A stretch of 40,088 nucleotides of DNA from Candidatus Eiseniibacteriota bacterium (GTDB lineage: Bacteria > Eisenbacteria > RBG-16-71-46). The position numbers and the translations under genes were made by a program. Every line of letters starts with the position of its first letter. Positions within the stretch are counted from its first letter, which is position 1. Under the pieces are notes generated by a model. It did not search any database and was not told the DNA's origin. It saw nothing but the letters and a program-made list of their open reading frames with translations. This document shows positions 2,360-37,841 of the stretch, piece after piece. The DNA lies in the NCBI GenBank assembly GCA_044222365.1, contig JBGANH010000002.1:1-40088 (forward strand), written 5' to 3'.

Positions 2360-2403
2360 TATAGCCGGGGCGCGTTGGGGCGTCAGCAGGACGGAGGTGC
2401 GAA

Positions 2404-5400
2404 GTGAAGCACGTGTGGCAGCGTTTCCTCTCGTGGGCCGGGCCAGTGGCCGTGGCTCTCGCGTTGACGCTGGCGGCGCTCCGCGGTGAGCCGCTGCAGG
2501 CCGCGAGCGGATCGGGCGTCGAGAACCCGCACGGCACCTTCAAGCAGGAGTGCGAGCTCTGCCATTCGTCGGCGGACTGGCGCACGCTGCGCCTGAGCGC
2601 GCGTTTCGATCACGCCCGCTACGGCTTCCCGCTCGAGGCCGCGCACGCGTCGGCCGCGTGCACGTCCTGCCACCAGTCGCTCGATTTCACGCGCGCGCAG
2701 ACCGTGTGCGCCTCGTGCCACACCGATCCGCACCGCGGTGAGATGGGCACCGAGTGCGCCCGCTGCCACGGCGCCCGCAGCTTCACCGACCGCGCGCCGA
2801 TGATCCGCGCGCACGAGATGACGAAGTTCCCGCTCAACGGCTCGCACGCGGTCGTCGAGTGCGAGAGCTGCCACAAGCCCGCGGCGCAGGGACAGATGCA
2901 GTTCGTCGGCACGCCGGTCGAGTGCCGGTCGTGCCACGAGAAGGACTACCGCGCGACCCGCAATCCCGACCACGCCGCGCAGGGCTTCCCGATGGACTGC
3001 CGCGGCTGCCACACCGCGCAGGTGTGGACGACCGCGACGTTCGACCACTCGCGCACGGCGTTCCCGTTGACGGGCGCGCACGTGACGCAGGAGTGCGCTT
3101 CGTGCCACAACGGCGGCAACTTCGCCGCCGCCGATCCGGCGTGCTCGTCCTGCCACACGTCGCAGTACCAGAACGCGACGCCCGACCACGCGGCCGCCGG
3201 CTTCCCGGCGAGCCAGTGCGCGACGTGCCACAACACGTCCACGTTCGCGGGCGGCGCGTTCGATCACGGCGCCACTCGCTTCGCGCTGACCGGCGCGCAC
3301 GCGGCGACGGCGTGCCTGAGCTGCCACGCCGACGGCGTCTATCACGGCAAGCCGCTCGACTGCGCCTCGTGTCACGAACTGCAGTACAGCTCGGCGACGC
3401 CGTCGCACTCCGGCGCGGGCTTCTCCGCCTCCCAGTGCGCGACGTGCCACACGACCGTGACCTGGTCGGGCGGCCGCTTCGATCACGGCACGACGGCGTT
3501 CGCGCTGACGGGCGCGCACCAGAGCTCGACGTGCAATTCCTGCCACTCCGACAACGTCTTCAACGGCAAGCCGGCGCAGTGCGAGACGTGTCACTCCGCC
3601 GACTACGCGAACGCGACGCCGAACCACCCGGCGTCGGGTTTCCCGGCGAGTCTGTGCACGACGTGCCACAACACGGTCACGTTCGCGGGCGCGACGTTCA
3701 ACCACTCCAACACGAGCTTCGCGCTCACCGGCGCGCACCAGGCCGTGAGCTGCAACTCGTGTCACTCGGACGGCGTCTTCGACGGCAAGCCGACCAATTG
3801 CTACTCGTGCCACCAGTCCGACTATTCCGGCGCCGTCGTGAACCACGCGGCCGCGGGCTTCCAGTCGAGCGCGTGCACGACCTGCCACAACACGACCACC
3901 TGGACGAGCGCCACGTTCAATCACACGACCGGCACGAGCTTCCCGCTCACCGGATCGCACGTCGCGCGCGCCTGCAACGACTGCCACTCGGACAACGTCT
4001 TCAACAACAAGCCGACGAACTGCTACTCGTGCCACGCGGCCGACTACGCCGGCGCGACGCCGAACCATCCGGCGGCCGGATTCTCGACGGCGTCGTGCGC
4101 GAACTGCCACAACACGACGACCTTCGCGGGCGCGGTGTTCAACCACAACACGAACACGAGCTTCCCGCTGACCGGCGCGCACCAGGCGGCGGCCTGCACG
4201 AGCTGTCACTCCGACGGTGTGTACAACGGCAAGCCCACGGACTGCGCCTCGTGCCACATGGCCGATTACAACGGCGCGACGCCGAACCACACCACGTCGG
4301 GCTTCCCGGCGAGCACGTGCGCGAACTGCCATTCGACCACGACGTGGTCGGGCGCGACGTTCAATCACAGCACGAACACGAGCTTCCCGCTCACGGGCGC
4401 GCACCAGACGACCTCGTGCAACTCGTGCCACGGCGACGGCGTCTACGACGGCAAGCCGACGGCGTGCCAGTCGTGCCACTCGAGCGACTACTCGGGTGCG
4501 TCGCTCAACCACACGGCCGCCGGGTTCGCGGCGAGCGCGTGCGCGACGTGTCACACGACCACCGCGTGGACGGGCGCGACGTACAACCACTCGGCGACGA
4601 GCTTCCCGCTCACGGGATCGCACGTGGCGGCGGCCTGCAACAGCTGCCACTCGAACGGCGTGTTCAACAACCACGCGATGGACTGCGCCTCGTGCCACAT
4701 GGCGGACTACAACGCCGCGACGCCGAGCCACGCCACGTCCGGGTTCCCGGCGGCGACGTGCGCGAACTGCCACAACACGACGACGTTCACGGGCGCCACG
4801 TTCAACCACAGCACGAACACGAGCTTCCCGCTCACCGGCGCGCACCAGTCGGTGACGTGCAACTCGTGCCACTCGGACGGGGTGTACGACGGCAAACCGA
4901 CCGCCTGCCAGTCATGCCACTCGAGCGACTACTCGGGCGCGTCGCTCAACCACACGGCCGCCGGCTTCGCGGCGAGCGCGTGCGCGACGTGTCACACGAC
5001 CACCGCGTGGACGGGCGCGACGTACAACCATTCGCTCACGAGCTTCCCGCTGACGGGCGCGCACACCACGGCGACGTGCAACGGCTGCCATTCGAACGGC
5101 GTGTTCAACAACCACGCGATGGACTGCGCGTCCTGCCACATGGACGACTACAACACGGCCGTGCCGAACCACGTGACGTCGGGCTTCGCGGCGTCGTCCT
5201 GCGCGACGTGCCACACGACCACCACCTGGTCGGGCGCGACGTTCAACCACACCACGAACACGACCTTCCCGCTCACCGGCGCGCACCAGGCCGTGAGCTG
5301 CAACTCGTGCCACGGTGACGGCGTGTACGACGGCAAGTCCACGGCGTGCTACTCGTGTCACCAGAGCGACTACACCGCGGCGGTACCCACGCACACCGCG

Positions 5401-5910
5401 ACGTCGTTCCCGACGTCCGCGTGCGGCTCGTGCCACACGACCACGGCCTGGGCGGGCGCGACGTTCAATCACGCCACGACGAGCTTCCCGCTCACGGGTG
5501 CGCACGTGACCACGACGTGCAACAGCTGCCACTCGGACGGCGTGTACGACGGCAAGCCGACGGCCTGCCTGTCGTGCCACCAGACGGACTGGAACTCGAC
5601 CGCGCCGAGCCACGCGGGTGCCGGGTTCAACGCCTCGCAGTGCTCCACGTGCCACACCACCTCGACGTGGGCGGGCGGCAAGTTCACCGCGCACGACGCC
5701 TCGCACTTCCGGATCTACTCCGGCAAGCACAACGGCCGGTGGTCGAACGACTGCACGTCCTGCCACACCAGCACGGCGTCGTACGGGACGTTCACGTGCA
5801 TCGCCTGCCACGAGCACAGCAACAAGACCGAGGTGGACGGGCACCACAGCGGAAACCGCAGCTACACCTACACGCCGACGTCCTGCTTCGGCTGTCACGC
5901 CCGCGTGTAG
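2404..5910 (+). CDS. secreted giant multiheme cytochrome c (46 CXXCH sites; polymer of triheme c7/c3-like modules)
   Basis: GTG start 6 nt after GGAGG (2393-2397). N-terminal signal peptide MKHVWQRFLSWAGPVAVALALTLAALRG. 46 CXXCH motifs by manual count in 1168 aa. A terminator hairpin follows the stop. Confidence 0.93.
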   Translation: MKHVWQRFLSWAGPVAVALALTLAALRGEPLQAASGSGVENPHGTFKQECELCHSSADWRTLRLSARFDHARYGFPLEAAHASAACTSCHQSLDFTRAQTVCASCHTDPHRGEMGTECARCHGARSFTDRAPMIRAHEMTKFPLNGSHAVVECESCHKPAAQGQMQFVGTPVECRSCHEKDYRATRNPDHAAQGFPMDCRGCHTAQVWTTATFDHSRTAFPLTGAHVTQECASCHNGGNFAAADPACSSCHTSQYQNATPDHAAAGFPASQCATCHNTSTFAGGAFDHGATRFALTGAHAATACLSCHADGVYHGKPLDCASCHELQYSSATPSHSGAGFSASQCATCHTTVTWSGGRFDHGTTAFALTGAHQSSTCNSCHSDNVFNGKPAQCETCHSADYANATPNHPASGFPASLCTTCHNTVTFAGATFNHSNTSFALTGAHQAVSCNSCHSDGVFDGKPTNCYSCHQSDYSGAVVNHAAAGFQSSACTTCHNTTTWTSATFNHTTGTSFPLTGSHVARACNDCHSDNVFNNKPTNCYSCHAADYAGATPNHPAAGFSTASCANCHNTTTFAGAVFNHNTNTSFPLTGAHQAAACTSCHSDGVYNGKPTDCASCHMADYNGATPNHTTSGFPASTCANCHSTTTWSGATFNHSTNTSFPLTGAHQTTSCNSCHGDGVYDGKPTACQSCHSSDYSGASLNHTAAGFAASACATCHTTTAWTGATYNHSATSFPLTGSHVAAACNSCHSNGVFNNHAMDCASCHMADYNAATPSHATSGFPAATCANCHNTTTFTGATFNHSTNTSFPLTGAHQSVTCNSCHSDGVYDGKPTACQSCHSSDYSGASLNHTAAGFAASACATCHTTTAWTGATYNHSLTSFPLTGAHTTATCNGCHSNGVFNNHAMDCASCHMDDYNTAVPNHVTSGFAASSCATCHTTTTWSGATFNHTTNTTFPLTGAHQAVSCNSCHGDGVYDGKSTACYSCHQSDYTAAVPTHTATSFPTSACGSCHTTTAWAGATFNHATTSFPLTGAHVTTTCNSCHSDGVYDGKPTACLSCHQTDWNSTAPSHAGAGFNASQCSTCHTTSTWAGGKFTAHDASHFRIYSGKHNGRWSNDCTSCHTSTASYGTFTCIACHEHSNKTEVDGHHSGNRSYTYTPTSCFGCHARV
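3040..5682 (+). repeat. coding array of 12 tandem 73-74-aa triheme modules
   Basis: Module consensus F[ND]H..(T)SF(P/A)LTGAH....C..CH.DGV(Y/F).GKP..C.SCH..DY....P.H...GF....C..CH.T..(W/F).G(A/G). Each module has 3 CXXCH plus 3 additional conserved His. Confidence 0.85.
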
Positions 5911-8215: not shown

Positions 8216-9307
8216 GTGCACTTCGACTACACGCGCTGGCAGGGTCCGAATCCGGGTGACATGGAGCGGATGCGCCAGCTCATGGACATCTACCGCAACC
8301 TGCTCCTGCAGACGGGTGGCGACGTGGAAGAGGCGCTGAAGTGGATGGAGCACTTCGGCCGCGAGTACGGGTTCTTCGACGAGAAGTTCGGGCTCTCCGA
8401 CTTCCGCAAGCTGCTCGAGGAGTCCGGTGAGGCGGAACGCACACCGCAGGGCTTCCAGATCACGCCCAAGGGCGAGCGCCGGATCCGGCAGGACTCGCTC
8501 AACGAGATGTTCTCGTCGCTGCGCGCCGGCGGTCCCGGCGATCACCGCACGCCCGTCGCGGGCAAGGGCGGCGAACGCCTGTCGGAGACGCGCGCATGGC
8601 AGTTCGGCGACGACCTCGGGAATCTCGACGCGCTCGGTTCGGTGAGCAACGCGGTCAAGCGTCAGGGCGTGGACGACCTCACGCTCGGCGAGGACGATCT
8701 CGAGGTCTTCGAGCAGGAGCAGACGTCGGCGTGCGCGACGGTGCTCATGGTGGACGTGAGCCACTCCATGATCCTGTACGGCGAGGACCGCATCACCCCG
8801 GCCAAGCGCATCGCGCTCGCGCTCACGCAGCTCGTGCAGACGCGCTACCCGAAGGACACCCTCGACGTCGTGCTGTTCGGCGACGACGCGAAGCAGGTGC
8901 GGCTCGCGGACCTCATGGGCATCCAGGCCGGTCCGTACCACACGAACACGCGGGCCGGGCTGCAGATGGCGCGGCGCATCCTCGCCTCGCGCAAGGGCGT
9001 CAACAAGCAGATCTTCATGATCACGGACGGCAAGCCGAGCTGCATGCACGAGTTCGGCCGGCTCTACAAGAATCCCTTCGGGCTCGACCCGAAGATCGTC
9101 AACAAGACGCTGGAAGAAGCCGTCTACTGCCGGCGTAAGAGAATCACGATCACGACGTTCATGCTCGCCGCGGACACCGTGCTGCTCGAGTTCGTGCGCA
9201 AGCTGACCGAGCTGAACCACGGAAGGCTGTACGAGACCGATCCGCAGAACATCGGCGCGTACGTGTTCCGCGACTTCGTCCGCAACCGCCGCAAGAAGCT
9301 GCATTGA
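8216..9307 (+). CDS. von Willebrand factor A (vWA) domain protein, partner of the AAA+ ATPase
   Basis: MIDAS-like VLMVDVSHSM, later ITDGKPS. GTG start 4 nt after the methyltransferase stop, with GGAGG upstream. Confidence 0.85.
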   Translation: MHFDYTRWQGPNPGDMERMRQLMDIYRNLLLQTGGDVEEALKWMEHFGREYGFFDEKFGLSDFRKLLEESGEAERTPQGFQITPKGERRIRQDSLNEMFSSLRAGGPGDHRTPVAGKGGERLSETRAWQFGDDLGNLDALGSVSNAVKRQGVDDLTLGEDDLEVFEQEQTSACATVLMVDVSHSMILYGEDRITPAKRIALALTQLVQTRYPKDTLDVVLFGDDAKQVRLADLMGIQAGPYHTNTRAGLQMARRILASRKGVNKQIFMITDGKPSCMHEFGRLYKNPFGLDPKIVNKTLEEAVYCRRKRITITTFMLAADTVLLEFVRKLTELNHGRLYETDPQNIGAYVFRDFVRNRRKKLH

Positions 9308-9351
9308 GGTCCACACGCTCCCCGCGTGTCGTCACGTTCCTCGGAGATCCC

Positions 9352-10005
9352 ATGAATCGCAATGTCGCACTCGCGCTGACCGCGCTCGTCATGACCACCG
9401 CCCTCGCCGCGGCGCCCGCGCACGCGGGCGTCACGCTCGGCCTGAAGGCCGGCCTCACCACCTCGCAGCTCGGCTCCGATCTCGGCGACCTCAATAGGCG
9501 ATCCGGTGTCGGCGGCGGCGGTTCCCTCGCCGTGGACCTCACGCGCAACCTCGCGTTCGCGCCCGAACTGCTGTGGTTGCGCAAGGGCTCGACGTTCACG
9601 TCCACGAACGTGAGCTTCGGCGGTTTCGACTTCGGCAACATCCGCACGGGCATCGACCTCGACTACGTCGAAGTGCCGTTGCTGCTCCGCCTGCAGACCG
9701 GCGCTCCGGGATCCGCGCGCCTCATGCTGGTCGGCGGCCCGACCGTCGCGTTCAAGGTGAGCGAGAAGCTCACCACCGACGGTCTTCTCGACACGCATCT
9801 CGACACGAACGAGTTCGAGACGTTCGACTACGGCGTGGCGGTGGGCGCCGGGCTGCGGCTGCCCGCCGGCGGCCTGAACTGGACGTTCGAGGCGCGCTAC
9901 GAGCAGGGGCTCGCCGACGCGTCGAAGCTTCCATTCGGTCCCGACCTCAAGAACGGCAGCGTGCAGGCGCTCGTCGGTCTGGAGTTCCCGCTGCTCGGCC
10001 GCTGA
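9352..10005 (+). CDS. outer-membrane beta-barrel protein (small porin-family/OmpA-like barrel)
   Basis: Signal peptide MNRNVALALTALVMTTALAAAPAHA. Alternating beta-strand pattern with a YVEVPLLLRL-type strand. Paralogous in pattern to 37077-37751. Confidence 0.75.
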   Translation: MNRNVALALTALVMTTALAAAPAHAGVTLGLKAGLTTSQLGSDLGDLNRRSGVGGGGSLAVDLTRNLAFAPELLWLRKGSTFTSTNVSFGGFDFGNIRTGIDLDYVEVPLLLRLQTGAPGSARLMLVGGPTVAFKVSEKLTTDGLLDTHLDTNEFETFDYGVAVGAGLRLPAGGLNWTFEARYEQGLADASKLPFGPDLKNGSVQALVGLEFPLLGR

Positions 10006-12297: not shown

Positions 12298-12708
12298 TCA
12301 CGGCAGGAATCGCCCACGCTGTTCCGGGGTCGCGAGCGCGCACGCGTCGGCCCTGCCGAACCAGCCCAGCCGCCGCGCGGCGACGTACCGATAGGCCGAC
12401 TCGCGCAGCGGCCGCGGCACCGCGTGGCCGACCGCCGCGAGCGCGCCCCACGGCCCGCCGCACAGGGCGACCGCACGCAGCACGGCGTCACTGCGGGTCA
12501 GCAGCTTTCCACGGTCGAGCAGCACGACGGTGTCGAGTTCGCACGGCTTGTCCGGCACGTCGAGCGCCGCGTACGTCTCGCCCTGCAACGGCGCGTAGCG
12601 CAGGACGCCGGCGCGATCGTGTCGCAGGCACCAGGCGACCGAGCGCGCGCAGAGTCCGCACGTGCCGTCGTAGAAGAGAAGACTCGCGGTCTCCGGCCGC
12701 GTGCTCAT
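12298..12708 (-). CDS. DCC-family thiol-disulfide oxidoreductase (DUF393)
   Basis: N-terminal LLFYDGTCGLCARSV (the YDGxCxLC motif). About 136 aa. Confidence 0.8.
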   Translation of the reverse strand: MSTRPETASLLFYDGTCGLCARSVAWCLRHDRAGVLRYAPLQGETYAALDVPDKPCELDTVVLLDRGKLLTRSDAVLRAVALCGGPWGALAAVGHAVPRPLRESAYRYVAARRLGWFGRADACALATPEQRGRFLP

Positions 12709-12724
12709 CGGCGCGGCCGCGCGG

Positions 12725-14203
12725 TCATCGCGCGACGGCCGGCTTTCCGGCGCCGCCCTTCATCCCCACGTAGATCGCGCCGGCCGCGAAGAAGCCGACG
12801 AACCACGCGTAGTCATAGAGTGGCCGCATTGGCGGAAATACGAGACCGCCCCACGCGAGCGCGCAGCCCGCGATCGTCGCGACCACGGCGGGAATGCTCC
12901 AGCCGCCGTACTCGCCGTCCGGCAGGTAGAGATCGCCGAGGTTCAACTCCTTCTTCCGCACGATCCAGTAGTCCGCGATCAGCACGCCCGCGATCGAGCC
13001 GAGGCCGCCGGAATAGCCGACCAGCCATGTGAAGATGTAGCCGGTCGGGTCGGCGAGCAGCTTCCAGGGCTGCATCGCGATGCCGAGCAGGCCGGTGATG
13101 AGCCCGCCGGTCTTGAACGAGATGTACTTGGGCAGCGCGTTCGCGAAGTCGTTGGCCGGGGACACCACGTTGGCGGCGATGTTCACCGCGAGCGTCGCGA
13201 TCACGACCGAGAACATGGCGAAGCCGACGATCCATGGGTTCGTGAAGTGGCCGACGAGCTTCACCGGATCCCAGATCGGCTCGCCGTAGAGGATCGCGCT
13301 CGCGCTCGTGATGAGCACGCCCATCGCGGCGAACGCGAACATGGTCGTGGGGAGCGCGACCGTCTGGCCGACCACCTGTTCCTTCTGGCTGCGGCCGAAG
13401 CGCGTGAAGTCCGGCATGTTCAGCGACAGCGTCGCCCAGAAGCCGATCATGCCGGTGAGCGACGGAATGAAGACCGGCATGAACTCCGCCATCGTCGTGA
13501 ACTTGCCGGGCTGCGAGAGCAGCGGGCCGAAGCCGTTCGCGGCCTTCACGGCCCACACGAGCAGGATCGCGGTCACGACGAGCACGTAGGGCGCCGACAG
13601 GTTCTCGACGATCCGCAGCAGGTTCATGCCCTTGTAGATGATGCCGATGTTGATGCCCCAGAAGATCAGGAAGCTGAGCCACTCCGTGCCGGTGTGGCCC
13701 GCGAAGCCGGGGCCGAGCAGCTGAGCCCAGTTCGGGATCAGCACGGCGAAGAACGTCTGCAGCGCCTCGCCACCGATCCACGCCTGGATGCCGAACCAGC
13801 CGCACGCGACGAGCGCGCGCATGAGCGCCGGGAGGTTCGAGCCCGCGGTGCCGTACGCGGCGCGGGCGAACACGGGGAAGGGAATGCCGTACTTCGTGCC
13901 CGGGTGCGAGTTCAGCAGGATCGGGGCGAGCACGATCGTGTTGCCGAGGAGGATCGTGAAGAGCGCCTGCCACCAGTTCATGCCCTGCGTCATGAGGCCG
14001 GACGCGAGCATGTACGTGGGAATGCAGTGCGCCATGCTGATCCAGAGCGCGGCGAAGTTGTACGTGGTCCAGTCGCGCTTCGCGACCGCGACGGGGGCGA
14101 GGTCCTCGTTGAAGAGCGGACTCGTGTGCAGCGCGGCGGCGTCCTGCAGTTCCACGCGGCCGTCGGCATGGCGGATCACGTCCAGCGGGCGATGTGCGGC
14201 CAT
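12725..14203 (-). CDS. NCS1 family nucleobase/hydantoin:cation symporter
   Basis: ATG 14203 with GGAGG upstream. Polytopic membrane protein with an NCS1-like N-terminus NEDLAPVAVAKRDWTTYNFAALWISM. Confidence 0.87.
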   Translation of the reverse strand: MAAHRPLDVIRHADGRVELQDAAALHTSPLFNEDLAPVAVAKRDWTTYNFAALWISMAHCIPTYMLASGLMTQGMNWWQALFTILLGNTIVLAPILLNSHPGTKYGIPFPVFARAAYGTAGSNLPALMRALVACGWFGIQAWIGGEALQTFFAVLIPNWAQLLGPGFAGHTGTEWLSFLIFWGINIGIIYKGMNLLRIVENLSAPYVLVVTAILLVWAVKAANGFGPLLSQPGKFTTMAEFMPVFIPSLTGMIGFWATLSLNMPDFTRFGRSQKEQVVGQTVALPTTMFAFAAMGVLITSASAILYGEPIWDPVKLVGHFTNPWIVGFAMFSVVIATLAVNIAANVVSPANDFANALPKYISFKTGGLITGLLGIAMQPWKLLADPTGYIFTWLVGYSGGLGSIAGVLIADYWIVRKKELNLGDLYLPDGEYGGWSIPAVVATIAGCALAWGGLVFPPMRPLYDYAWFVGFFAAGAIYVGMKGGAGKPAVAR

Positions 14204-23331: not shown

Positions 23332-24639
23332 CTAACGATGTCCCGCCAGCATCGGCGAGTCCGGCCGCACGGTGACGCCGCAGGCCGAGGCGATGGCGCG
23401 CGCGGCGCGCTTGCCGTCCTGCGCCGCGGTCACGACGAGTTCGCCGCCGGTCACGTCGCCGCCGACGAACACCTTCGGGTTCCCGGTCGCGCCGCTCATC
23501 GGATCGGCGATCGCGAGGCCCTTGTCGTTCACCGCCACACCCGCGAACTGCGACACGACCGCGCCGAGCTTGCCCTGCCCGATCGCGACGACGGCCAAGT
23601 CGCACGCGACCTCGCGGCCGTCGGCCAGCGCGAGCGCCGCGAGCTTGCCGTCCTGCCGCACGAACTGCTTCGGCGTCGCCTTCTCGATCAGCCGCACGCC
23701 TTCCTTGCGGGCCAGCTCGAGCTCGTGCTTGTAGCCCGGCATGTCGGCTTCGGTGCGGCGGTAGACGAGCGCCACGTCGGGCACGCCCAGCTTGGCCAGT
23801 TCGCGCACCACGTCAAGTGCGGTGTTGCCACCGCCGATCACGATCGCGCGCTTCACGCCGTCGAGCGAGTACGACTCGTCGAGCTTCATCTTCTCGACCC
23901 ACTCGACGCCGCCCAGCACGTTCGCGCCGTCCTCGCCCGGGATGCCGAGCTTCGAATCCGCACCGAGGCCCACGCCGACGAACACCGCGTCATGGTCGGC
24001 CACGAGCTTCTCGGCCGTGATCGTCCTGCCGATCTCGACGCCGGTCTTGATCGTCACGCCGAGCGAGCGGATGAACTCGACCTCGGCATCGGCGCCCTCA
24101 CCGTTCATCTTGTAGGGCGCGACGCCGGTGCGGTTCAGGCCGCCGGCCAGGTCGCGCTTCTCGTAAAGCGTCACCTCGAAACCTTCGATCGCCAGGTAAC
24201 CCGCACACGCGAGCGACGCGGGACCGGCGCCGACGCACGCGACGCGCTTGCCGTTCTTCGGCGCCCGGCTCAGCAGCGCCGCCGCGTCACCCTTGGCGAA
24301 CGCGGTCTCGACCGCGTAGCGCTGCAGGCGGCCGATCTGGATCGGCGGGTTGCGGTGCCATTCGTTGTACACGCACGAGCCGACGCACAGCGCCTCGACC
24401 GGGCACACCCGCGCGCACGAGTAGCCGAGCAGGTTGGCCGACAGAATGGTGCGGGCGGAGCCCTTCACGTTGCCGGTCGCGATCTTGCGGATGAACGTCG
24501 GGATGTCGATGCCGGTCGGGCAAGCCGTGATGCACGGCGCGTCGTGGCAGTAGAGGCAGCGGTTCGCCTCCGCCACGGCGTCGCCCGGAATGTAGTTCGG
24601 CTTCGAGTCGGCGATGCGGCTTTCGAGGGCCTGCTTCAA
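23332..24639 (-). CDS. preT: NAD-dependent dihydropyrimidine dehydrogenase subunit PreT
   Basis: TTG start overlaps the dihydropyrimidinase stop (TTGA). N-terminal Fe-S motif CLYCHDAPCITACP, dinucleotide fold VACVGAGPASLACAG, second fold VIGGGNTALD. Confidence 0.88.
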   Translation of the reverse strand: MKQALESRIADSKPNYIPGDAVAEANRCLYCHDAPCITACPTGIDIPTFIRKIATGNVKGSARTILSANLLGYSCARVCPVEALCVGSCVYNEWHRNPPIQIGRLQRYAVETAFAKGDAAALLSRAPKNGKRVACVGAGPASLACAGYLAIEGFEVTLYEKRDLAGGLNRTGVAPYKMNGEGADAEVEFIRSLGVTIKTGVEIGRTITAEKLVADHDAVFVGVGLGADSKLGIPGEDGANVLGGVEWVEKMKLDESYSLDGVKRAIVIGGGNTALDVVRELAKLGVPDVALVYRRTEADMPGYKHELELARKEGVRLIEKATPKQFVRQDGKLAALALADGREVACDLAVVAIGQGKLGAVVSQFAGVAVNDKGLAIADPMSGATGNPKVFVGGDVTGGELVVTAAQDGKRAARAIASACGVTVRPDSPMLAGHR

Positions 24640-30854: not shown

Positions 30855-31164
30855 GCGCACGAGTTTCGCCGAGCCCCGCGACGCCCTGCAAGCGTCTCGC
30901 GAGTCGGCCGTGCAACGTGCACGTCAAGATCGGGCCGTCCCGGAACCGCCGCCCGAAAGCGGTGTATCGCTTCGCGCGTCCACGCACCTGTACCGCGAAA
31001 GGGGGGCCGACGGCGCGACTCCTGCTCGCGACTGTGCGAGATTGTCGATCGCGAACTCCGATGCCTCTCCACCAGCCTCCAGAGGCGGGCCCCACGCTCC
31101 GCGATCGGATCGCCGGTGACCACGTCGCTTCGTCCACGTTCCCATTCCCGAGGTGAACCTGCCC

Positions 31165-31665
31165 ATGCTTCGCCGCCTCATCGTGCGCACCCTCGCCGCG
31201 GCCGTGCTGGGGCTCGCGCTCGCCGCCGTTCCGCTCCACGCTGCCGCGCCGGAGCCAGCGCCGGCGCTCACGGTGCGCACCGCGCGCGGGGACGTTTCGC
31301 TGGAGTCGCTGAAGGGCAAGGTCGTCGTGCTCGACTTCTGGGCGTCGTGGTGCGCACCCTGTCATCAGTCCTTCCCCTGGCTCGACGCGCTCCAGAAGAA
31401 GTACGCCGACCAGGGCCTCGTCGTGCTGGCGGTCGACGTGGACAAGGACTCCGATCTGGCCGACCGCTTCGTGGCCCGGCATCCGGTGTCGTTCACGATC
31501 GGCTACGACCCCGCGGGCCGAGCCGCGAGTGCGATGAAGGTCTCGGGCATGCCCTCGACGTTCGTGATCGACCGCACCGGCACGGTGCGGATGCGCCACG
31601 TCGGATTCGACGCCAAGAAGACGAAGCCGCTCCAGAACGCCATCGAGGAGGCACTCCGCCCATGA
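31165..31665 (+). CDS. TlpA-family periplasmic thioredoxin-like disulfide reductase
   Basis: ATG 31165 after GAGGTGA. Signal peptide. Active site FWASWCAPC. The MPSTFVID strand is typical of TlpA/ResA proteins. Confidence 0.88.
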   Translation: MLRRLIVRTLAAAVLGLALAAVPLHAAAPEPAPALTVRTARGDVSLESLKGKVVVLDFWASWCAPCHQSFPWLDALQKKYADQGLVVLAVDVDKDSDLADRFVARHPVSFTIGYDPAGRAASAMKVSGMPSTFVIDRTGTVRMRHVGFDAKKTKPLQNAIEEALRP

Positions 31666-31910
31666 CGCCGATCCTCCCTTCGCACCGTCGCGCGCTCCTC
31701 GTCGCGGTCGCCGCAGTCGCGGTCGCCGCGCTCGCATCGGGCTGCGCGGCGATGGTCGTCCATCCCTGGGATCACGACCTGCTCGCCGAGAAGAAGATGA
31801 GCTTCACTCCCAATCCGCTCGAGACGGCAATGGACATGCACATCTACTTCAGCAAGGAAGGCTCGACCGGCGGACAGGACGTCGGGGGAGGAGGCTGCGG
31901 ATGCAACTGA
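31662..31910 (+). CDS. DUF4266-type small lipoprotein with C-terminal GGGGCGCN
   Basis: ATGA overlap with the tlpA stop. Lipobox LASGC. 82 aa ending in a Gly-rich CGC motif. Confidence 0.78.
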   Translation: MTPILPSHRRALLVAVAAVAVAALASGCAAMVVHPWDHDLLAEKKMSFTPNPLETAMDMHIYFSKEGSTGGQDVGGGGCGCN

Positions 31911-33178
31911 CCTCCGGCGCCCCGGTGCCCGTGCTGCGCGCGCGACTGCGCGCCGCGACCTGCGTCCTGCTGGCGGCGGGCGCCCCCGCGGCGGCCCACG
32001 CCGAGGGCGCGGCGCCCGCGTGGCAGTTCGACGGCTCGACGCTCGTCTACGCGGAGCGGTCGCGGACGCAGATCGTCGAGCCGGTCGCGAGGATCACGCG
32101 GATGTTCTCGGGCGGGCAGAGTCTCTCGGCCCAGTTCGCGCTCGACGCGATGAGCGGCGCCTCGCCGAGCGGTGCGCAGCCCTCGGGCCAGGTGCAGACG
32201 ACCACGTCGGCTTCCGGCACGCCCGACGACGCACGCAGCCAACGAGGTGCCGACTGACCCTTCCACGATTTCCGCAGCGCGTTCGACCTGTCGTACGCGC
32301 AGCCGGTCGGTTTCGCCACGTTCACGACTGGCGGGCACTTCTCGCACGAACGCGATTACCGCTCGCTGGGTGTGCACGAATCGGTGTCGCTCGACCTCAT
32401 GCACCACCTGACGACCGTGACGCTCGGCGGCGGCGTGAACCGCGACCACGTCGTGCCGATCGGCGGCGTGCGCGTCGGACTGACCGACGGCACGCTGTAC
32501 GAGAGCGGCTCGAGCCGCTCGAAGAACGTCACCGACGGACTCGTCGGCGTCTCGCGCGTGCTCACGCGCCGCTGGATGGTGTCGATGAATGCCGCGCGCA
32601 CACACGAGCAGGGTTACCTGACCGAGCCCTACAAGATCGTCAGCCTGATCGACGCGACGGGCTACCCGATCCCGGAAAGCCTGCTCACCGAGAAGCGTCC
32701 GTCGACGCGCAACCGGAACAGCGTGGTGGGCAGCTCGGTCTTCCACTTCGCGAAGGACGTGCTCTACACCACCTATCGCTACTACTGGGACGACTGGGGC
32801 GTGCGCTCGCACACGGTCGATTTCAAGTACCGCCAGGAGCTCCCCGAGCACGACTGGCTGCAGCCGCACGTCCGCTACTACCAGCAGACGCCGGCCGACT
32901 TCTTCACCTTCGGCCTGCCGCTCACGCAGCCAGTCTCGCAGCGGCCGAAGTACGCCACGAGCGACCTGCGCCTCGGCCCGCTGCGCACCCTCACGCTCGG
33001 CGCGTCGTACGGCTTCCGCTGGCCGGACCTTCCGGGCGACTTCAGCCTGCGCGGCGAGTACCTGCGTCAGTGGGGCGACGGACATCCGTCGTACGCGATC
33101 GGCGCGCAGCGAACGCTCGACCTGTTCCCGCCCGAAGACGTCTTCACGGTCACGGTCGGCTACTCCGTGCCGTTCTGA
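31901..33178 (+). pseudogene. DUF3570-type outer-membrane beta-barrel protein interrupted by an in-frame TGA at 32255-32257
   Basis: Two tracked ORFs (31901-32257 and 32372-33178) are in the same frame. Protein-like sequence reads straight across the stop (..GAD*PFHDFRSAFDLSYAQPVGF..). Signal peptide at the N-terminus and a barrel-type C-terminus ..VGYSVPF. The start overlaps DUF4266 by 10 nt. Confidence 0.7.
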
Positions 33179-33186
33179 GGCCGCCC

Positions 33187-34107
33187 GTGGCGTCGCGCGA
33201 TCCGCAACCGACGCGCCCCGAGACGGGCGCGTCGGTCGCGCGCGCTGGGAATCATTTCGTCGGGCGATTCGCGGCGCTGGGCGGCCCGTGCGAGTTGCTC
33301 GTCGACACCGACGACCGCGCCGAGGCCCTGGAGCTGGTGGACCTCGCGCGCGAGGAGGCGCTCCGCATCGAGGAGAAGTTCGGGCGCTACCGTCCCGTGG
33401 GCGTCGTGCACCGCATCAATCACGCGGAGGGCGCGACGCTCGAGGTCGACGACGAGACCGCGGCGCTGATCGACTACGCCGCGCTCTGCCACGAGATGTC
33501 GGAGGGACGCTTCGACGTGACGTCGGGCGTGCTGCGGCGCGTCTGGCACTTCGACGGCCGCGAGGCAGAGCCGGACGAAGCGGCGCTCCGCGCCGCGCTC
33601 GCGCGCGTGGGCTGGTCGCGGGTGCGCTGGGAGCGCCCGCACCTGACGCTGCCCGCCGGCATGGAGATCGACCTCGGCGGGCTCGGCAAGGAGTACGCCG
33701 TCGATCGCGCCGCCGCGCGCGTCGCCGAACGGGCGTCGGCACCGTTCCTCGTCAACTTCGGCGGCGACCTCGTCGCCCACGCGCCGCGACGCGGCGGCGT
33801 GCCGTGGGCCGTCGGCATCGACGATCCGGGACACACGGGCGAGGCGGTGCTCTACCGCGTCGATCTCGCGCGGGGCGGTCTGGCCACGAGCGGTGACGCG
33901 CGCCGCTTCGTGACCGTGCGCGGCCGGCGGCTCGGCCACATCCTCGATCCCCGCACGGGCTGGCCGGTCGAAGGCGCGCCGCGCTCGATCACCGTGCTCG
34001 CCGCGAACTGCCTCGAAGCGGGCACGCTCGCGACGATGGCGATTCTGCGCGGCGAGAACGCCGCGGCGTTCCTGCGCGAGCAGGGCGTCGAGCACCGCAT
34101 CGCTTGA
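33187..34107 (+). CDS. apbE: FAD:protein FMN transferase (ApbE family)
   Basis: GTG 33187 after GAGG. ApbE motifs GGLGKEYAVDRAA, FLVNFGGD, LATSGD, GHILDPRTG. No obvious signal peptide or lipobox. Confidence 0.88.
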   Translation: MASRDPQPTRPETGASVARAGNHFVGRFAALGGPCELLVDTDDRAEALELVDLAREEALRIEEKFGRYRPVGVVHRINHAEGATLEVDDETAALIDYAALCHEMSEGRFDVTSGVLRRVWHFDGREAEPDEAALRAALARVGWSRVRWERPHLTLPAGMEIDLGGLGKEYAVDRAAARVAERASAPFLVNFGGDLVAHAPRRGGVPWAVGIDDPGHTGEAVLYRVDLARGGLATSGDARRFVTVRGRRLGHILDPRTGWPVEGAPRSITVLAANCLEAGTLATMAILRGENAAAFLREQGVEHRIA

Positions 34108-34123: not shown

Positions 34124-34152
34124 GCGGCCGGCACGCCACGCGTGCCGGCCGC
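34124..34152. terminator. bidirectional terminator hairpin between apbE and the convergent coiled-coil gene
   Basis: 13-bp perfect stem GCGGCCGGCACGC / GCGTGCCGGCCGC with loop CAC. Confidence 0.65.
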
Positions 34153-34167
34153 CCTCGCGGAGTCGGG

Positions 34168-35043
34168 CTACGACTGGCGCAGGATGACGACGTGCTTGAC
34201 GGTGCGGAACGCCGGCGGGTCGAGGATGCGCAGTTCGAGCCCCTTACCGGCGGGCACCAGCGAATAGCTCGCCGCGGGCTGTGCGCTCAGGACGCGGGCA
34301 CGCGCCGACGGGATCGGGATGACCGTCTGGGCGTCGGTGTCGATCGCGGTGAACACGCTGTCGGCGATCGACGACGAAGGCACCAGCGTGCTGCCCAGCC
34401 CGAGGAAGCCACCGGTCGCGACCGCGGCACCGGAGCGCGTCAAGCCCTGCTTGTCGCCGATCACGTAGAAGACCGTGCCCATCTCGCGGCGCTGCTCCTC
34501 GATCGTCTGCTCGCGCAGTTGCACCGTCTCGTTCGCCGTCTCCACCTGCGTCGTGAGCCCGGCGACCGCCGTGTGCAGCGAATCCACCTGATTGGTGAGC
34601 GACGCGATGATGGACTCCTTGGCCGCGATGTCGCGCCGCAGGCCCTGGATCACGCGCTCGAGGCCGGCGATCTTGACACCGTTCAGGCGCGCGCGGTTCT
34701 CGAGGTCACGCAGGCGCAGCTTGGTCCGCTCGATGCCGGCCTTCAGCAGCGCGATGCGGTCGAGCGCTTCGCGGCCGCGCAGCACCGACAGGCCGCGCTC
34801 GGTCCCGGGCGAGCCGGGCAGGAGCGGCCGCGTGGCCTCCGAGACGCCCAGCGTGGCGAGGCTGTCCTGGATTTCGGCGATGGCGCTCAACGCGTCGCCG
34901 TAGCGCAACTGCGTCGCGTCCTGCGTGGACTTCACGCTCTGGTAGCTGGCCTCCATCGTGCGGTACTTCTGCCAGAACATGACGGTGGCCGCGAGCAGCA
35001 GCACGACGAGTGCGGTGAGGGTGAGGGGAACGACCTTGTTCAT
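34168..35043 (-). CDS. membrane-anchored coiled-coil protein with a conserved C-terminal globular domain
   Basis: ATG 35043 after AAGGAGA. One N-terminal TM helix VVPLTLTALVVLLLAATVMFW. About 170 aa of heptad-like sequence (LRLRDLENR, IQGLRRDIAAKE, VDSLHTAVAGL). C-terminal FYVIGDKQGL...ILDPPAFRTVKHVVIL. Confidence 0.7.
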   Translation of the reverse strand: MNKVVPLTLTALVVLLLAATVMFWQKYRTMEASYQSVKSTQDATQLRYGDALSAIAEIQDSLATLGVSEATRPLLPGSPGTERGLSVLRGREALDRIALLKAGIERTKLRLRDLENRARLNGVKIAGLERVIQGLRRDIAAKESIIASLTNQVDSLHTAVAGLTTQVETANETVQLREQTIEEQRREMGTVFYVIGDKQGLTRSGAAVATGGFLGLGSTLVPSSSIADSVFTAIDTDAQTVIPIPSARARVLSAQPAASYSLVPAGKGLELRILDPPAFRTVKHVVILRQS

Positions 35044-35171
35044 GTCCACGTCTCCTTTTCGACGGGGCCTTCGCTCCGGGGAGGTGCGGAGGTGCGATGC
35101 GCGCATGGTACACCGAAGCGCGCCTCCGGGTTCGCCGCGCGTGGCCCCGGTGGTGCCCGACGGCAAAAGCG

Positions 35172-35199
35172 AGGGGCGAGGTCCGTGGACCCCGCCCCT
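35172..35199 (-). terminator. Rho-independent-type terminator after the lipoprotein gene
   Basis: AGGGGCG(A)GGTCC..GGACC(C)CGCCCCT hairpin, followed on the minus strand by CGCTTTTGCCG. Confidence 0.6.
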
Positions 35200-35236
35200 G
35201 GCTCTGCCCGTCGCCCCGGCCTGCGCCGGGCCGCCG

Positions 35237-35875
35237 TCACTTGCTCGTCAGCGTCTTCGTCTTGACCTTGCCGACGACGTTCATCGTCAGACGGATTTCG
35301 TAGTCGAAGTTCGTCGAGCCGCCGCCCGCCGCCGTACCCGTCGCGTCGTACGCCAGGTAGTGCGTGGCCGCGGTGTGCGACTTGAGCTCGCCCAGCAGCG
35401 TGGCCAGCGTGTTGTTGATCAGCGTCACGCCCGCGGGCGTCAGAGCCACGTTCGTCCAGGGCGTCACCGCGCCCGCGCCGCCCGTGAAGCTCGAGATCAG
35501 CGTGGTGCCGGGCGTGATGCTCGACGTGCTGCCGAAACCGATGCGGATCGAGCCGTTGATGGTGCGGGCCGCGACCGGATCCGGCGTCGTGACGCGGTAG
35601 TCGACCTTCTGCAGCGAGATCGACACGAGGCTGTCCAGTTCGATGCCGGCGTCGTCGATGGCCGACAGGATGTCGGACGTCGGGATGAGCGTGGACGTCG
35701 GGTTACTCGTCAGCACGTTCGTCGAACCGCTGGCGTGCAGCTGCGTCGTCACGGAGTTCGTGACCACGAGCTCGACCATGCGGTCCTCGATCGTGGGTGT
35801 CAGGATGCAGCCGCTGGCGAGAAACTGCACCGCGACGAGCGCGGCGAGGGCGAGACCAAAGCGATGGATGCGCAT
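35237..35875 (-). CDS. hypothetical lipoprotein (Thr/Ser-rich)
   Basis: ATG 35875 lies 6 nt after GGAGG. Lipobox FLASGC. 212 aa with no recognisable catalytic motif. Confidence 0.7.
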   Translation of the reverse strand: MRIHRFGLALAALVAVQFLASGCILTPTIEDRMVELVVTNSVTTQLHASGSTNVLTSNPTSTLIPTSDILSAIDDAGIELDSLVSISLQKVDYRVTTPDPVAARTINGSIRIGFGSTSSITPGTTLISSFTGGAGAVTPWTNVALTPAGVTLINNTLATLLGELKSHTAATHYLAYDATGTAAGGGSTNFDYEIRLTMNVVGKVKTKTLTSK

Positions 35876-35885
35876 CGTCGTCCTC

Positions 35886-36785
35886 CTAGAGACCCAGGCT
35901 CAGGCCGAGGGCCGCGCCGGTGTACGCTGCCTTGAACCACTCCGCGTGGAGCTTCACGACCGCCAGCGAGACCTGCGCGCCGATGGCCGCATGAACGTTG
36001 CTCTCGCCGTCCGGGTGCACCGAGATCTTCTCGCCGGAGCCGTCGGTGAGCGTGTAGGCGATGTCCATCTTGCACGTGTCGAAGCCGAGCGAAGCATACG
36101 GCTCGAACTGGAACAGGCCGCCGAGCTTCTTGCTGCCCGTGACGTCGAAGTGCGTCGTCTTCACCTTCACGAGGTCGTCGCCGACCTTGAGCGTCTGGTA
36201 GAAGCCACCGACCGCGACGTCGACCGGCATGTGGACGTACTGCGAGATCGAGTGCTGTGCACCGAAGCCCACGAGGTCGATCTTGCCGTAGTCGGTGTCA
36301 CCGAGCTTGCTCGAGAACCAGCGCACCGTGGCGCGCGTCCCGGCGAAATCACCCACCGTCAGTTCCGGCACGGGCAGGTAGAAGAGCGTCGCGTCGAGAC
36401 CACCGGGATAGACCGGCGTGTACCCGAGGCCGTCCGGCACACCGACCGAACCGGTCGGGCCGATCACCGTCGGCACCTCGGTCGGCGTGTTCGCCGTCGA
36501 GCCGAACGGGTCGGTGGGCATGAACGTGCGGTCCTCGTCCGCGAACTCGGCACCCATGACGTGCACGCCGACGTGGAACGTGAAACCGGACTTCGGCACG
36601 GATCCCGACTGGAAGATGCCCCCGTTCAGCGTCGAGCTGAGGGCCTTGTTCAGCGGCGCCAGGTACCCGGCCGCGTTCGTGCCGGAAAGTGCGCCGAGCT
36701 TCTCGCTCAGGTCCGCCCGGGCCGGGGTCGCGAGCGACAACCCGAGAACCCCGAACAGGGCGAGGACGACTGCGATTCGCTTCAT
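35886..36785 (-). CDS. secreted beta-rich protein, probable outer-membrane protein (unassigned DUF)
   Basis: ATG 36785 (GTG 36794 is an alternative). Signal peptide MKRIAVVLALFGVLGLSLATPARA. Alternating hydrophobic pattern. Its stop codon abuts the SD of the next gene. Confidence 0.65.
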   Translation of the reverse strand: MKRIAVVLALFGVLGLSLATPARADLSEKLGALSGTNAAGYLAPLNKALSSTLNGGIFQSGSVPKSGFTFHVGVHVMGAEFADEDRTFMPTDPFGSTANTPTEVPTVIGPTGSVGVPDGLGYTPVYPGGLDATLFYLPVPELTVGDFAGTRATVRWFSSKLGDTDYGKIDLVGFGAQHSISQYVHMPVDVAVGGFYQTLKVGDDLVKVKTTHFDVTGSKKLGGLFQFEPYASLGFDTCKMDIAYTLTDGSGEKISVHPDGESNVHAAIGAQVSLAVVKLHAEWFKAAYTGAALGLSLGL

Positions 36786-37026
36786 GAATGGCACCTCGTC
36801 GATAGGAGTGGTCCGACTCGGCTAGCCCGCCACCACCGACCCTCGGCGGTTTCAGCGACGCTTGCGACGGCGATCTCGCCGCGGCGCCAGCGCCTCTTGC
36901 GGTGCGAACCCGTGGGTATCGATCGCGCCCGTGGGGGTAGACGTGCGCCCCGAGAGCCTAGTCGTCGGGCTTCTCGCGGGTCAACGGTCTTGTGCGGCTC
37001 CGTCCGAGCCGGCACGGGCAATACGA

Positions 37027-37076: not shown

Positions 37077-37751
37077 TCAGTGCGGATCGAGCACGGGGGG
37101 ATAGGCGATGCGCCAGCCCAGAACGACGCGCATCTCGTCGGTGTTCGCGCTCTGCCGGTAAACGCCTCTCAACGCGTCGGTGAGACCGCGTGTGTAGCGC
37201 GCCTCGAGCGTCGCACAACGTTCCGGCGGACCGAACTCCAGTCCGACGCCGGCCGTCGCACCCGCTTCGAGCGGAGCGAAGTCGTTCGGCTTGCCGGCGT
37301 AGCTGTTGTTGTCGCTGCCGTGCAGCCGCGCCTTCTCGAGCACCTTCCAGCCGAGGTACGGGCCGGCGACCAGCACCGGGCGCACGTGGCCGTGGCCGAG
37401 CGAGAAGCGGGCGAGGACCGGCAGCTCGAGGTAGTCTAGCGCGTAGAGCTGGTCGAACGTGCCGGAGTACGGCACGCCGTCGTAGATCGGGTTGGTGATT
37501 TCGCCGAACGACGCGCCCTTCGCGGCGTAGTTCAGCTCCGTTTGCAGCGAGAACGACGACGAGAACGGCACGTGGACGGCCATGCCGATCACGAAGCCGT
37601 ACTTCGAGTCGGTCGCCACGTCACCCGCGAGCTTCGCCTGATTGGCGCCTCCGCGCGTTTCGACATACAGCTGGCGCTCGGCGTGTGCGTTCGCCGCGCC
37701 CAGGAAGAGCGTGACGAGCGCCGCGGCCAGCGCGAGACGACTGCGAGCCAT
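37077..37751 (-). CDS. outer-membrane beta-barrel protein (small porin-family barrel), paralog-like to 9352-10005
   Basis: ATG 37751 lies 6 nt after GGAGG. Signal peptide MARSRLALAAALVTLFLGAANAHA. The LDYLELPVLARF strand resembles LDYVEVPLLLRL of the other barrel. Confidence 0.8.
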   Translation of the reverse strand: MARSRLALAAALVTLFLGAANAHAERQLYVETRGGANQAKLAGDVATDSKYGFVIGMAVHVPFSSSFSLQTELNYAAKGASFGEITNPIYDGVPYSGTFDQLYALDYLELPVLARFSLGHGHVRPVLVAGPYLGWKVLEKARLHGSDNNSYAGKPNDFAPLEAGATAGVGLEFGPPERCATLEARYTRGLTDALRGVYRQSANTDEMRVVLGWRIAYPPVLDPH

Positions 37752-37841
37752 GAGCCACCTCCGGATCCCGGGAGGTCATCTCCCGGCCCGGGCTTTATCG
37801 GCCCCCGCCGCGGGGAACTTCAGCGCGGCGGCCGGCTCCGG

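Follow-up and report, generated by a model that had tools for sequence, protein, structure and literature searches.

Does the cluster of four genes on the forward strand at positions 31165-34107 of the analysed DNA (40,088 nucleotides, referred to as the window) encode a protein of the outer membrane that carries covalently bound flavin, and could this flavin be served by a thiol-based system of the periplasm? The genes encode, in order of transcription, a TlpA-like thioredoxin, a DUF4266 lipoprotein, a DUF3570 protein and an ApbE, all of which have been assigned by Pfam with scores far over the cut-offs. The genes are tightly coupled, with an ATGA overlap at the first junction, a 10-nt overlap at the second and an 8-nt gap at the third (33178 to 33187). 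These junctions and the gene identities had been listed in a first-pass annotation made from the raw letters, and they agree with the sequence and with the Pfam assignments. The ApbE gene and the next gene are convergent and are separated by a hairpin with a folding energy of -46 kcal/mol (z-score -3.95), which is not followed by a U tract and is not called in a scan for consensus terminators. This hairpin is probably the end of the operon. The features are listed in Table 1.

Table 1. Positions of the features of the cluster in the window
Feature	Positions	Strand	Basis
TlpA/ResA-like periplasmic thiol:disulfide reductase	31165..31665	+	Pfam Redoxin, AhpC-TSA; PDB 3gl3
DUF4266 small lipoprotein	31662..31910	+	Pfam PF14086
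DUF3570, 5' piece: signal peptide, barrel strands 1-3, both Ser sites	31901..32257	+	Pfam, alignments
DUF3570, out-of-frame stretch	32222..32257	+	DNA and protein alignments, blastn
DUF3570, 3' piece: barrel strands 4-18 and beta-signal	32258..33178	+	Pfam PF12094, AlphaFold, Foldseek
ApbE-family FAD:protein FMN transferase	33187..34107	+	Pfam PF02424, PDB matches
GC-rich 13-bp hairpin	34125..34153		folding energy

The central idea of the annotation, that the DUF3570 protein is a candidate substrate of the adjacent ApbE, is correct. The module had been taken there to have, as far as is known, no assigned function. Both the flavinylation and the gene cluster were published in 2021, in a study showing by experiment that a DUF3570 protein receives flavin from ApbE (Méheust et al. 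2021, eLife 10:e66878, PMC8238504). The pair from Chlorobium luteolum (C. luteolum) was studied there by co-expression and by Ser-to-Ala mutants, and the loss of flavin required that the serines of both [S/T]GA[S/T] motifs be mutated; the CXC of DUF4266 has also been remarked on (PMC8238504). The reading of the raw sequence arrived independently at this result. As the core result is already published, the locus is regarded as one more, damaged example and not as a new system. The current analysis adds to it the conservation of the first acceptor site and of the gene order, a model of the barrel, an ApbE that lacks a signal peptide, the lack of DsbD in the window and the separation of the cluster from a multi-haem cytochrome. 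The locus is very probably a copy of the published module of ApbE, DUF3570, DUF4266 and thioredoxin-like protein, in the form that has no adjacent DsbD, and would work by the relay proposed here. Its source is probably a bacterium of the Candidatus Eisenbacteria type.

In this proposal the ApbE, using FAD, would form a phosphoester link between FMN and Ser88 of the DUF3570 protein, and perhaps also Ser105. The DUF3570 protein would be exported through the Sec pathway and inserted in the outer membrane as a barrel of about 18 strands, in which a flavin-bearing loop (residues 90-117), facing outwards or into the lumen, would connect strand 3 to strand 4. The TlpA-like reductase with its C-x-P-C site would be held in the reduced state by a DsbD or CcdA encoded elsewhere. 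Electrons would pass from it to the C-terminal CGC of DUF4266, the glycine tail of which would hand them to the FMN of the barrel, and this FMN would reduce an acceptor outside the cell or on its surface, perhaps Fe(III). We infer the passage of electrons from thiol to flavin, its direction and the nature of the acceptor.

The DUF3570 protein carries the motif DAMSGAS, which lies exactly at 32144-32164 as first annotated, with Ser88 as the predicted FMN acceptor. The site, of the form D-x-x-[ST]-G-A-S, is found in 101 of 105 DUF3570 homologues and its columns are conserved at 96-100% (D82 and G86 in all the homologues, A87 in 96% and S88 in 98%). Two matches to D..[ST]GA[ST] are observed in the six-frame translation of the window, compared with 0.77 expected. 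The copy in DUF3570 is considered on these sequence comparisons to be more than a chance match. The other one, DPMSGAT at 23485-23505 of the reverse strand, is treated as chance since it falls where a pyridine-nucleotide oxidoreductase binds FAD (the ...GD region).

A second conserved serine block, TTTSASG at 32198-32218, which had been missed in the earlier reading, includes Ser105. Its positions T100, T102, S105 and G106 are invariant among the 105 homologues. The block departs from the canonical [S/T]GA[S/T]: it reads TSAS here and T-[ST]-[AP]-S-G in this clade, with Pro at position 104 in 39 of the 105 homologues, and TGAS is seen in the loci L033 and L080 only. At least two canonical motifs are found in only 17 of the 105. 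The assignment of DUF3570 as the substrate of the adjacent ApbE is supported, for the homologous C. luteolum pair, by co-expression and mutants (PMC8238504), and the motif and the gene linkage are conserved here.

The DUF3570 protein has a signal peptide (AHA/EG at 31994-32008) and ends in an outer-membrane beta-signal, VGYSVPF, at 33155-33175. An AlphaFold model of the homologue P0001, with which it shares 93% identity, has a pLDDT of 91.6 and about 18 strands. Long loops are seen in the model on the odd-to-even strand connections only, and the turns on the other side are of 2-7 residues. Foldseek relates the model to the OccK, OmpG, FadL and AlgE barrels with a probability of 1.00 and TM-scores of 0.3-0.45; a sequence search for a solved relative of DUF3570 gave none. 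The protein is modelled with confidence as an outer-membrane barrel of about 18 strands, which fits its initial assignment as an outer-membrane barrel. In the model the acceptor serines, Ser88 and Ser105, placed only by strand order, would sit on the long loop that joins strand 3 to strand 4.

The TlpA-like gene begins at the ATG at 31165, which has GAGG 10-15 nt upstream, with a GTG at 31153 as the alternative start. Its product has a signal peptide ending in LHA/AAP and an active site WCAPC at 31348-31362. It is matched by the Pfam families Redoxin (PF08534, 80.7 bits) and AhpC-TSA (PF00578, 79.4 bits), and in the PDB its best match is 3gl3 (119 bits), the top matches being of the DsbE/ResA type. 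The matches to NCBIfam models are all under the cut-off (ResA 92.3 against 170, DsbE 68.9 against 123, TlpA 65.4 against 230). Going by these scores, the TlpA-like assignment holds at the level of the superfamily only and no named equivalog can be given. The active site in the related loci is C-x-P-C without exception, which is the reductase type.

The DUF4266 protein (69.5 bits) has a lipobox, LASGC, at 31731-31745, a mature part of about 55 amino acids and, at 31884-31907, a C-terminal tail rich in Gly, GGGGCGCN. The ending GGGCGCN is found in 80 of 80 locus homologues. A lipobox-like x-G-C is present in every locus homologue as well, with Ala after the Cys in 66 of 73.

In principle these two proteins could have no part in a relay. 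TlpA and DUF4266 would then serve in maturation or handle thiols or metals for some unrelated purpose, for instance by binding Cu or Fe through the CGC tail, and the DUF3570 protein with its FMN would act by itself as a channel or an enzyme. Metal binding by a CXC motif at the end of a flexible C-terminal tail has a precedent in the copper chaperone CCS. The mature DUF3570 protein has no conserved cysteine, and the clusters of L035 and L046 lack TlpA, both of which would suit this explanation. The invariance of GGGCGCN, the translational coupling of the four genes here and the same gene order in nearly all loci speak against it, and flavoprotein disulfide oxidoreductases provide well-established cases of flavin-dithiol chemistry. 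The explanation is considered unlikely, and the relay from TlpA through DUF4266 to the flavin is preferred.

The ApbE gene has a GTG start. Its product scores 210.9 bits with PF02424 (cut-off 25.6) and has the motifs GGLGKEYA (33676-33699), TSGDARRF (33886-33909) and HILDPRTG (33937-33960). A phmmer search of the PDB gave 1vrm (E = 2.6e-36), 6nxi, 3pnd and 4xdr, with which the ATSGD...R and HILDP.TG motifs align. The score with the E. coli-type equivalog NF007774 of NCBIfam is 90.9 bits and the cut-off is 498; by this measure the protein is a member of the family that falls outside that equivalog.

The N-terminus of the ApbE has no signal peptide, lipobox or hydrophobic stretch, in agreement with the caveat first noted, and a signal peptide is likewise absent in all 55 loci that could be scored by hydrophobicity. 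In these loci the start of the ApbE homology ranges from just upstream of the DUF3570 stop to about 65 nt downstream of it. The in-frame sequence that precedes the homology was scored as non-hydrophobic (best 9-residue Kyte-Doolittle mean below 1.9). An ApbE lacking a signal in every one of these loci, beside a substrate that is exported, is an observation that counts against the explanation preferred here. One tentative route for this clade, which we regard as somewhat improbable, is that the signal-less ApbE flavinylates the unfolded DUF3570 precursor in the cytoplasm, after which the precursor would cross SecYEG with its FMN and be folded by BAM. Loop 2 of the 18-strand barrel, on the outward or lumenal face, would then hold the covalent FMN, forming a haem-free, thiol-fed flavin conduit for electrons across the outer membrane.

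The species-representative genome collection contains 398 stretches that encode a relative. Among 80 loci from other species, practically every one has TlpA-DUF4266-DUF3570-ApbE in this order and on one strand, and the four-gene linkage is also found in other phyla. Conserved flanking genes have been considered and ruled out, as the closest relatives (L002-L004 and L013) are the only ones to share those of the window.

No DsbD (PF02683) or CcdA was found when about 30 ORFs of the window were scanned against Pfam, and for this reason the window falls in the published class of 316 clusters of these genes that have no DsbD, the clusters with DsbD numbering 227 (PMC8238504). The ten nearest neighbours with multiple membrane spans that were scanned in the related loci, a screen that could miss short CcdA proteins, are all unrelated transporters or peptidases, and the lack of DsbD and CcdA in these scans counts against the proposed relay. 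These observations raise the question of whether electrons could flow inwards. The flavin barrel would then accept electrons from Fe(II), sulfide or reduced humics and pass them through DUF4266 to TlpA, giving the periplasm reducing power that does not depend on DsbD. The flavin loop, by the order of the strands, would be on the outer side of the barrel, which agrees with such a flow, as do the neighbour scans and the number of published clusters that have no DsbD. Reductases of the thioredoxin fold with a C-x-P-C site, however, typically have low redox potentials, so the flavin would need a strong donor in order to reduce them. A DsbD or CcdA may moreover be encoded elsewhere, and the clusters that do contain DsbD are against an inward flow. 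We consider this direction to be quite unlikely and retain the outward one, from TlpA to the barrel.

The first-pass annotation had also tied the module to a 46-haem cytochrome encoded at 2404-5910. This link has been rejected. The cytochrome is 25 kb from the cluster, and the unrelated genes in between include those for an aminotransferase, a permease, an M23 peptidase, a BNR protein, a penicillin amidase, dihydropyrimidine dehydrogenase-like proteins and an S9 peptidase. Of 82 loci, just 2 have multi-haem ORFs in the vicinity of the cluster.

The DUF3570 gene of the window is interrupted. Its start, end and motifs stand as annotated, but the single open frame does not: the reading frame 31901-33178 is split by an in-frame TGA at 32255-32257 into a piece of 118 codons, with the signal peptide and the motif, and a piece of 306 codons with the barrel. 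PF12094 is matched in two parts, of 48.5 and 211 bits, at profile positions 3-99 and 115-426. DNA alignment with the close homologues L001, whose DUF3570 protein is 93% identical, and L002 reveals an additional base within the run of C at 32222-32224 and the loss of a base between 32256 and 32257. The blastn alignment to L001, 2150 nt long, has no gaps other than these two. The 11 codons between them are out of frame and read PDDARSQRGAD-stop; a shift of one base gives TTHAANEVPT, as in P0001. Selenocysteine or programmed recoding at the TGA has been ruled out: this residue is V, A, K or R in the homologues, and relative to L001 and L002 the 11 codons before it are merely read in the wrong frame. 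General indel noise in the assembly has been ruled out as well, because a codon-position GC scan shows no further frame breaks in the window and the alignment to L001 has no other gaps.

The interruption indicates either a module that does not function in this organism or a local error of assembly. In the former case the operon would be a recently inactivated pseudogene operon, making no DUF3570 barrel and leaving the module idle. This has to be reckoned with as a serious possibility, though not as the favoured one. The TGA arises from a pair of indels that is absent in L001 and L002, in a window with no other frame breaks. Yet the dN/dS with respect to L001 is 0.09-0.18 for both pieces of the gene, like that of the neighbouring genes, and the other members of the operon are intact. 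An indel pair that cancels out exactly within 33 nt also resembles a local artefact of consensus or strain mixing.

Compared with the published clusters, represented by the DUF3570 (ABB24424.1) and ApbE (ABB24423.1) proteins of C. luteolum, the cluster has the same four Pfam families, the conserved acceptor motif and the signal peptide of DUF3570, and the CXC end of DUF4266. The thioredoxin-like family in most of the published clusters is PF13899 (PMC8238504), which is not among the Pfam matches of the CxxC protein here, a Redoxin/AhpC-TSA member of TlpA-like type. The published DUF3570 has two canonical motifs, whereas here only the first is canonical and the second is T-S-A-S, and the gene is frameshifted here, unlike in the published system. 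The ApbE here has no signal peptide; the methods of that paper imply, by analogy with a DUF2271 construct, that the C. luteolum apbE construct was truncated to remove one.

The DsbD/CcdA pathways to TlpA, ResA and CcmG share with the cluster a secreted thioredoxin-fold protein with a C-x-P-C site. Their target is an apocytochrome or Sco, whereas the target proposed here is a CXC lipoprotein and a flavin, with no DsbD nearby. The FMN-bind substrates NqrC, RnfG, NosR and PplA have the same D-x-x-[ST]-G-A-[ST] acceptor, with FMN linked by a phosphoester to the last Ser/Thr, and their role in extracytosolic electron transfer is likened to that of the DUF3570 module. They are small soluble or inner-membrane-anchored domains, to which the DUF3570 protein, a beta-barrel of 425 residues, is unrelated in sequence and in fold. 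The MtrAB and other porin-cytochrome conduits likewise have a redox cofactor within or at an outer-membrane beta-barrel. They are likely to be a suitable analogy for the working of the module, membership of this group not being claimed, and the CxxCH motif is absent from all four genes of the operon. In MtrAB a decahaem protein is threaded through the barrel, whereas the DUF3570 barrel is proposed to carry a covalent FMN on a loop of its own.

Pfam scores well over threshold are obtained for all four genes of the TlpA-like, DUF4266, DUF3570 and ApbE operon, and the forward-strand layout, overlaps and motifs described in the first-pass annotation are borne out by the coordinates and Pfam matches, with DAMSGAS placed exactly. 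An alternative GTG start of the TlpA-like gene at 31153 lacks a ribosome-binding site.

Features of the redox operon and the multi-haem cytochrome gene in the window
Feature	Position	Strand	Details
46-CxxCH cytochrome	2404-5910	+	1168-aa ORF; Pfam Cytochrome_C7, Class III cytochrome c, MtrC/MtrF domain II/IV
TlpA-like gene	31165-31665	+	ATG start, GAGG 10-15 nt upstream; WCAPC at 31348-31362; Pfam Redoxin, 80.7 bits
DUF4266	31662-31910	+	ATGA overlap with TlpA; lipobox LASGC; C-terminus GGGGCGCN; Pfam 69.5 bits
DUF3570	31901-33178	+	10-nt overlap with DUF4266; C-terminus ...VGYSVPF; Pfam 48.5 + 211 bits
DAMSGAS of DUF3570	32144-32164	+	acceptor motif
ApbE	33187-34107	+	GTG start; 8-nt gap after DUF3570; Pfam 210.9 bits
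13-bp GC hairpin	34125-34153		between ApbE and convergent gene

DUF3570, which had been taken as one intact gene, is not a single open frame. A TGA at 32255-32257, overlooked in that reading, interrupts the translation started at 31901, and the two resulting pieces match positions 3-99 and 115-426 of the Pfam profile. The closest homologue (P0001), intact with 425 aa and 93% identity, comes from a Logan assembly; in the protein alignment it reads ...SASGTLTTHAANEVPTVPFHDF, against ...SASGTPDDARSQRGAD followed by the stop and PFHDF in the window. TTHAANEVPT is encoded in the window too, shifted by one base (ORF 32172-32411). DNA alignment to two close homologous loci, L001 and L002, reveals an extra base in the C run at 32222-32224 and a missing base between 32256 and 32257, these being the sole gaps over 2150 nt aligned to L001 at 92.8% identity. 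Such an interruption could mean that the locus is a pseudogene in the window organism. The dN/dS values relative to L001 (0.18 in the 5' and 0.09 in the 3' piece) resemble those of the neighbouring genes, and a codon-position GC scan found no further frame break in the window; the lesion therefore arose very recently or is an artefact of local assembly.

In the protein collection, 639 relatives were identified among the candidates scored, and a scan of species-representative genomes gave 398 stretches encoding a relative, with top matches in Candidatus Eisenbacteria and Thermoanaerobaculia and others in Verrucomicrobiota, Calditrichota and further groups. The linkage of the four genes, proposed from this genome, is conserved outside it: in the 80 fetched loci the genes follow one another on one strand as TlpA-DUF4266-DUF3570-ApbE wherever the contig extends, except in two. 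These Eisenbacteria loci without TlpA, L035 (3622-5541, reverse strand) and L046 (3560-5746, reverse strand), carry a divergent fused ABC_membrane and ABC_tran exporter upstream of DUF4266, in the place of TlpA. The flanking genes of the window are found again in the closest relatives only, and the conserved unit is therefore exactly these four genes. Three convergent genes lie downstream (34168-36794, reverse strand), encoding a DUF6588 protein and proteins of 332 and 212 aa to which no Pfam family could be assigned; all three adjoin the cluster in L002 also, and the 332-aa gene alone does so in L003. This recurrence reflects shared ancestry and not a functional link.

The acceptor motif D-x-x-[ST]-G-A-[ST], suggested earlier for DUF3570, is conserved in the family. 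Among 105 aligned homologues D82 and G86 are found in 100%, A87 in 96%, S88 in 98% and P89 in 95%, with T or S at position 85; TGSS occurs instead in 9 of 81 loci. A second block, T100-x-T102-[ST]-[AP]-S105-G106, has four residues invariant in the same homologues and probably corresponds to the second of the published sites. Its sequence is non-canonical in this clade, with TSAS in the window; two other loci (L033 and L080) have TGAS. The DUF4266 C-terminus is GGGCGCN in 80 of 80 loci, and its lipobox-like x-G-C is mostly followed by Ala. Every TlpA active site has the form C-x-P-C, with 41 loci carrying CGPC, 10 CAPC, 9 CVPC and 8 CEPC; this motif is of the reductase type. The top PDB match of the TlpA-like protein (31153-31665) is 3gl3, a 'putative thiol:disulfide interchange protein DsbE' (119 bits vs 75 for the runner-up), which we take to come from a Chlorobium species and which may be a solved orthologue from a DUF3570 cluster.

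The AlphaFold model of P0001, built with the 105-sequence alignment, is all-beta (mean pLDDT 91.6, pTM 0.84) with about 18 barrel strands. Long connections (residues 90-117, 185-205, 330-360 and 393-411) each run from an odd strand to the next even strand, and those on the opposite side of the barrel have 2-7 residues. The modelled connections fit the usual pattern of outer-membrane barrels, in which outer loops are long and periplasmic turns short. Foldseek matches comprise OccK/OpdK, OmpG, FadL, AlgE and TonB-dependent barrels at probability 1.00 with TM-scores of 0.3-0.45 only, and a sequence profile search found no solved relative. DUF3570 is predicted with good confidence to be an outer-membrane barrel. 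By strand order, Ser88 would lie where strand 3 ends on the outer side, and Ser105 would be part of a small hairpin inside loop 2. The pLDDT of this loop, about 90, points to its being packed against the barrel; we infer that the flavin could be placed in the lumen or at the surface. Two small OMP_b-brl_2 barrel genes at 9304-10005 (forward) and 37077-37775 (reverse) show that an outer membrane is indeed present in this organism.

ApbE looks intact as an enzyme: it aligns to the ApbE structures of T. maritima (TM1553), Vibrio and Salmonella and retains the ATSGD and HILDP.TG motifs. The caveat that it has no signal peptide holds, and is general. In 55 loci with alignments reaching the N-terminus, the start of homology falls between a point just ahead of the DUF3570 stop and about 65 nt beyond it, and the in-frame sequence upstream is never hydrophobic. 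Cytoplasmic ApbE enzymes with cytoplasmic substrates exist (review PMC12052999), and Chlorobium luteolum DUF3570 was flavinylated despite most of the protein being in the insoluble pellet (PMC8238504). If both C. luteolum constructs were without signal peptide, as the methods of PMC8238504 and the analogy with the DUF2271 construct imply, ApbE could act on non-native cytoplasmic DUF3570. Flavinylation ahead of Sec export would on these grounds be possible. We know of no precedent for this in an outer-membrane protein.

One Eisenbacteria genome (L005) encodes a second ApbE homologue, which is more distant (E = 2e-32) and lies some 2 kb upstream of the cluster (2379-3242, reverse strand). Six-frame translation of the window gave one other match to D..[ST]GA[ST], DPMSGAT at 23485-23505 (reverse), within the FAD-binding ...KVFVGGD region near the C-terminus of a Fer4_20 and Pyr_redox_2 protein (dihydropyrimidine dehydrogenase / GltD-like). 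The carrier is cytoplasmic, in a genome whose ApbE is without signal peptide; with 0.77 matches expected, the motif match was taken as chance.

When the gene is intact, ApbE would very probably place the flavin on Ser88 of DUF3570. A tentative proposal, which we hold at somewhat below even chance, is a thiol relay in which a DsbD/CcdA encoded elsewhere would reduce TlpA, whose electrons would pass to the DUF4266 CGC tail, then to the FMN on DUF3570 and finally to an external acceptor; that this acceptor is Fe(III) seems unlikely. A scan of about 30 ORFs of the window revealed no DsbD or CcdA, and in related loci the ten multi-membrane-span ORFs closest to the cluster proved to be unrelated transporters or peptidases. 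Published clusters include 227 with DsbD and 316 without, and a VIT1 iron transporter in 25 (PMC8238504). Electrons may alternatively run inward through the module, or TlpA and DUF4266 may serve a role other than a relay. As to the 46-haem cytochrome brought into connection with the operon, the ORF is real and the link does not stand, the two being 25 kb apart with unrelated genes between and multi-haem ORFs lying near the cluster in 2 of 82 loci only. These are a 7-CxxCH ORF immediately after ApbE on the same strand (L012, 8242-9285, forward) and 10- and 5-CxxCH ORFs about 3.4 kb and 4.4 kb downstream of ApbE (L039, 11516-13176, reverse). Another thiol-redox gene of the window, at 12301-12759 (reverse), encodes a DCC1-like thiol-disulfide oxidoreductase (PF04134, 80.6 bits) and is unlinked to the operon.

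The first-pass annotation rightly proposed DUF3570 as the substrate of the adjacent ApbE, an idea already in print. Méheust et al. 2021 (PMC8238504) described two conserved [S/T]GA[S/T] motifs in ApbE-associated DUF3570 proteins and showed that C. luteolum DUF3570 is flavinylated on co-expression with its cognate ApbE, mutation of both serines being required to abolish the label. That paper does not term DUF3570 an outer-membrane protein and states that the function of the module "remains uncertain"; a 2024 paper of the same group touches on outer-membrane localisation of flavinylated domains in passing only. The DUF4266 / DUF3570 / TlpA neighbourhood was noted by a 2023 preprint as well, and no other relevant paper mentioning DUF3570 was found in the literature searched. 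The locus is a known module rediscovered in a new genome with its substrate gene damaged, and adds little that is new to the published system.
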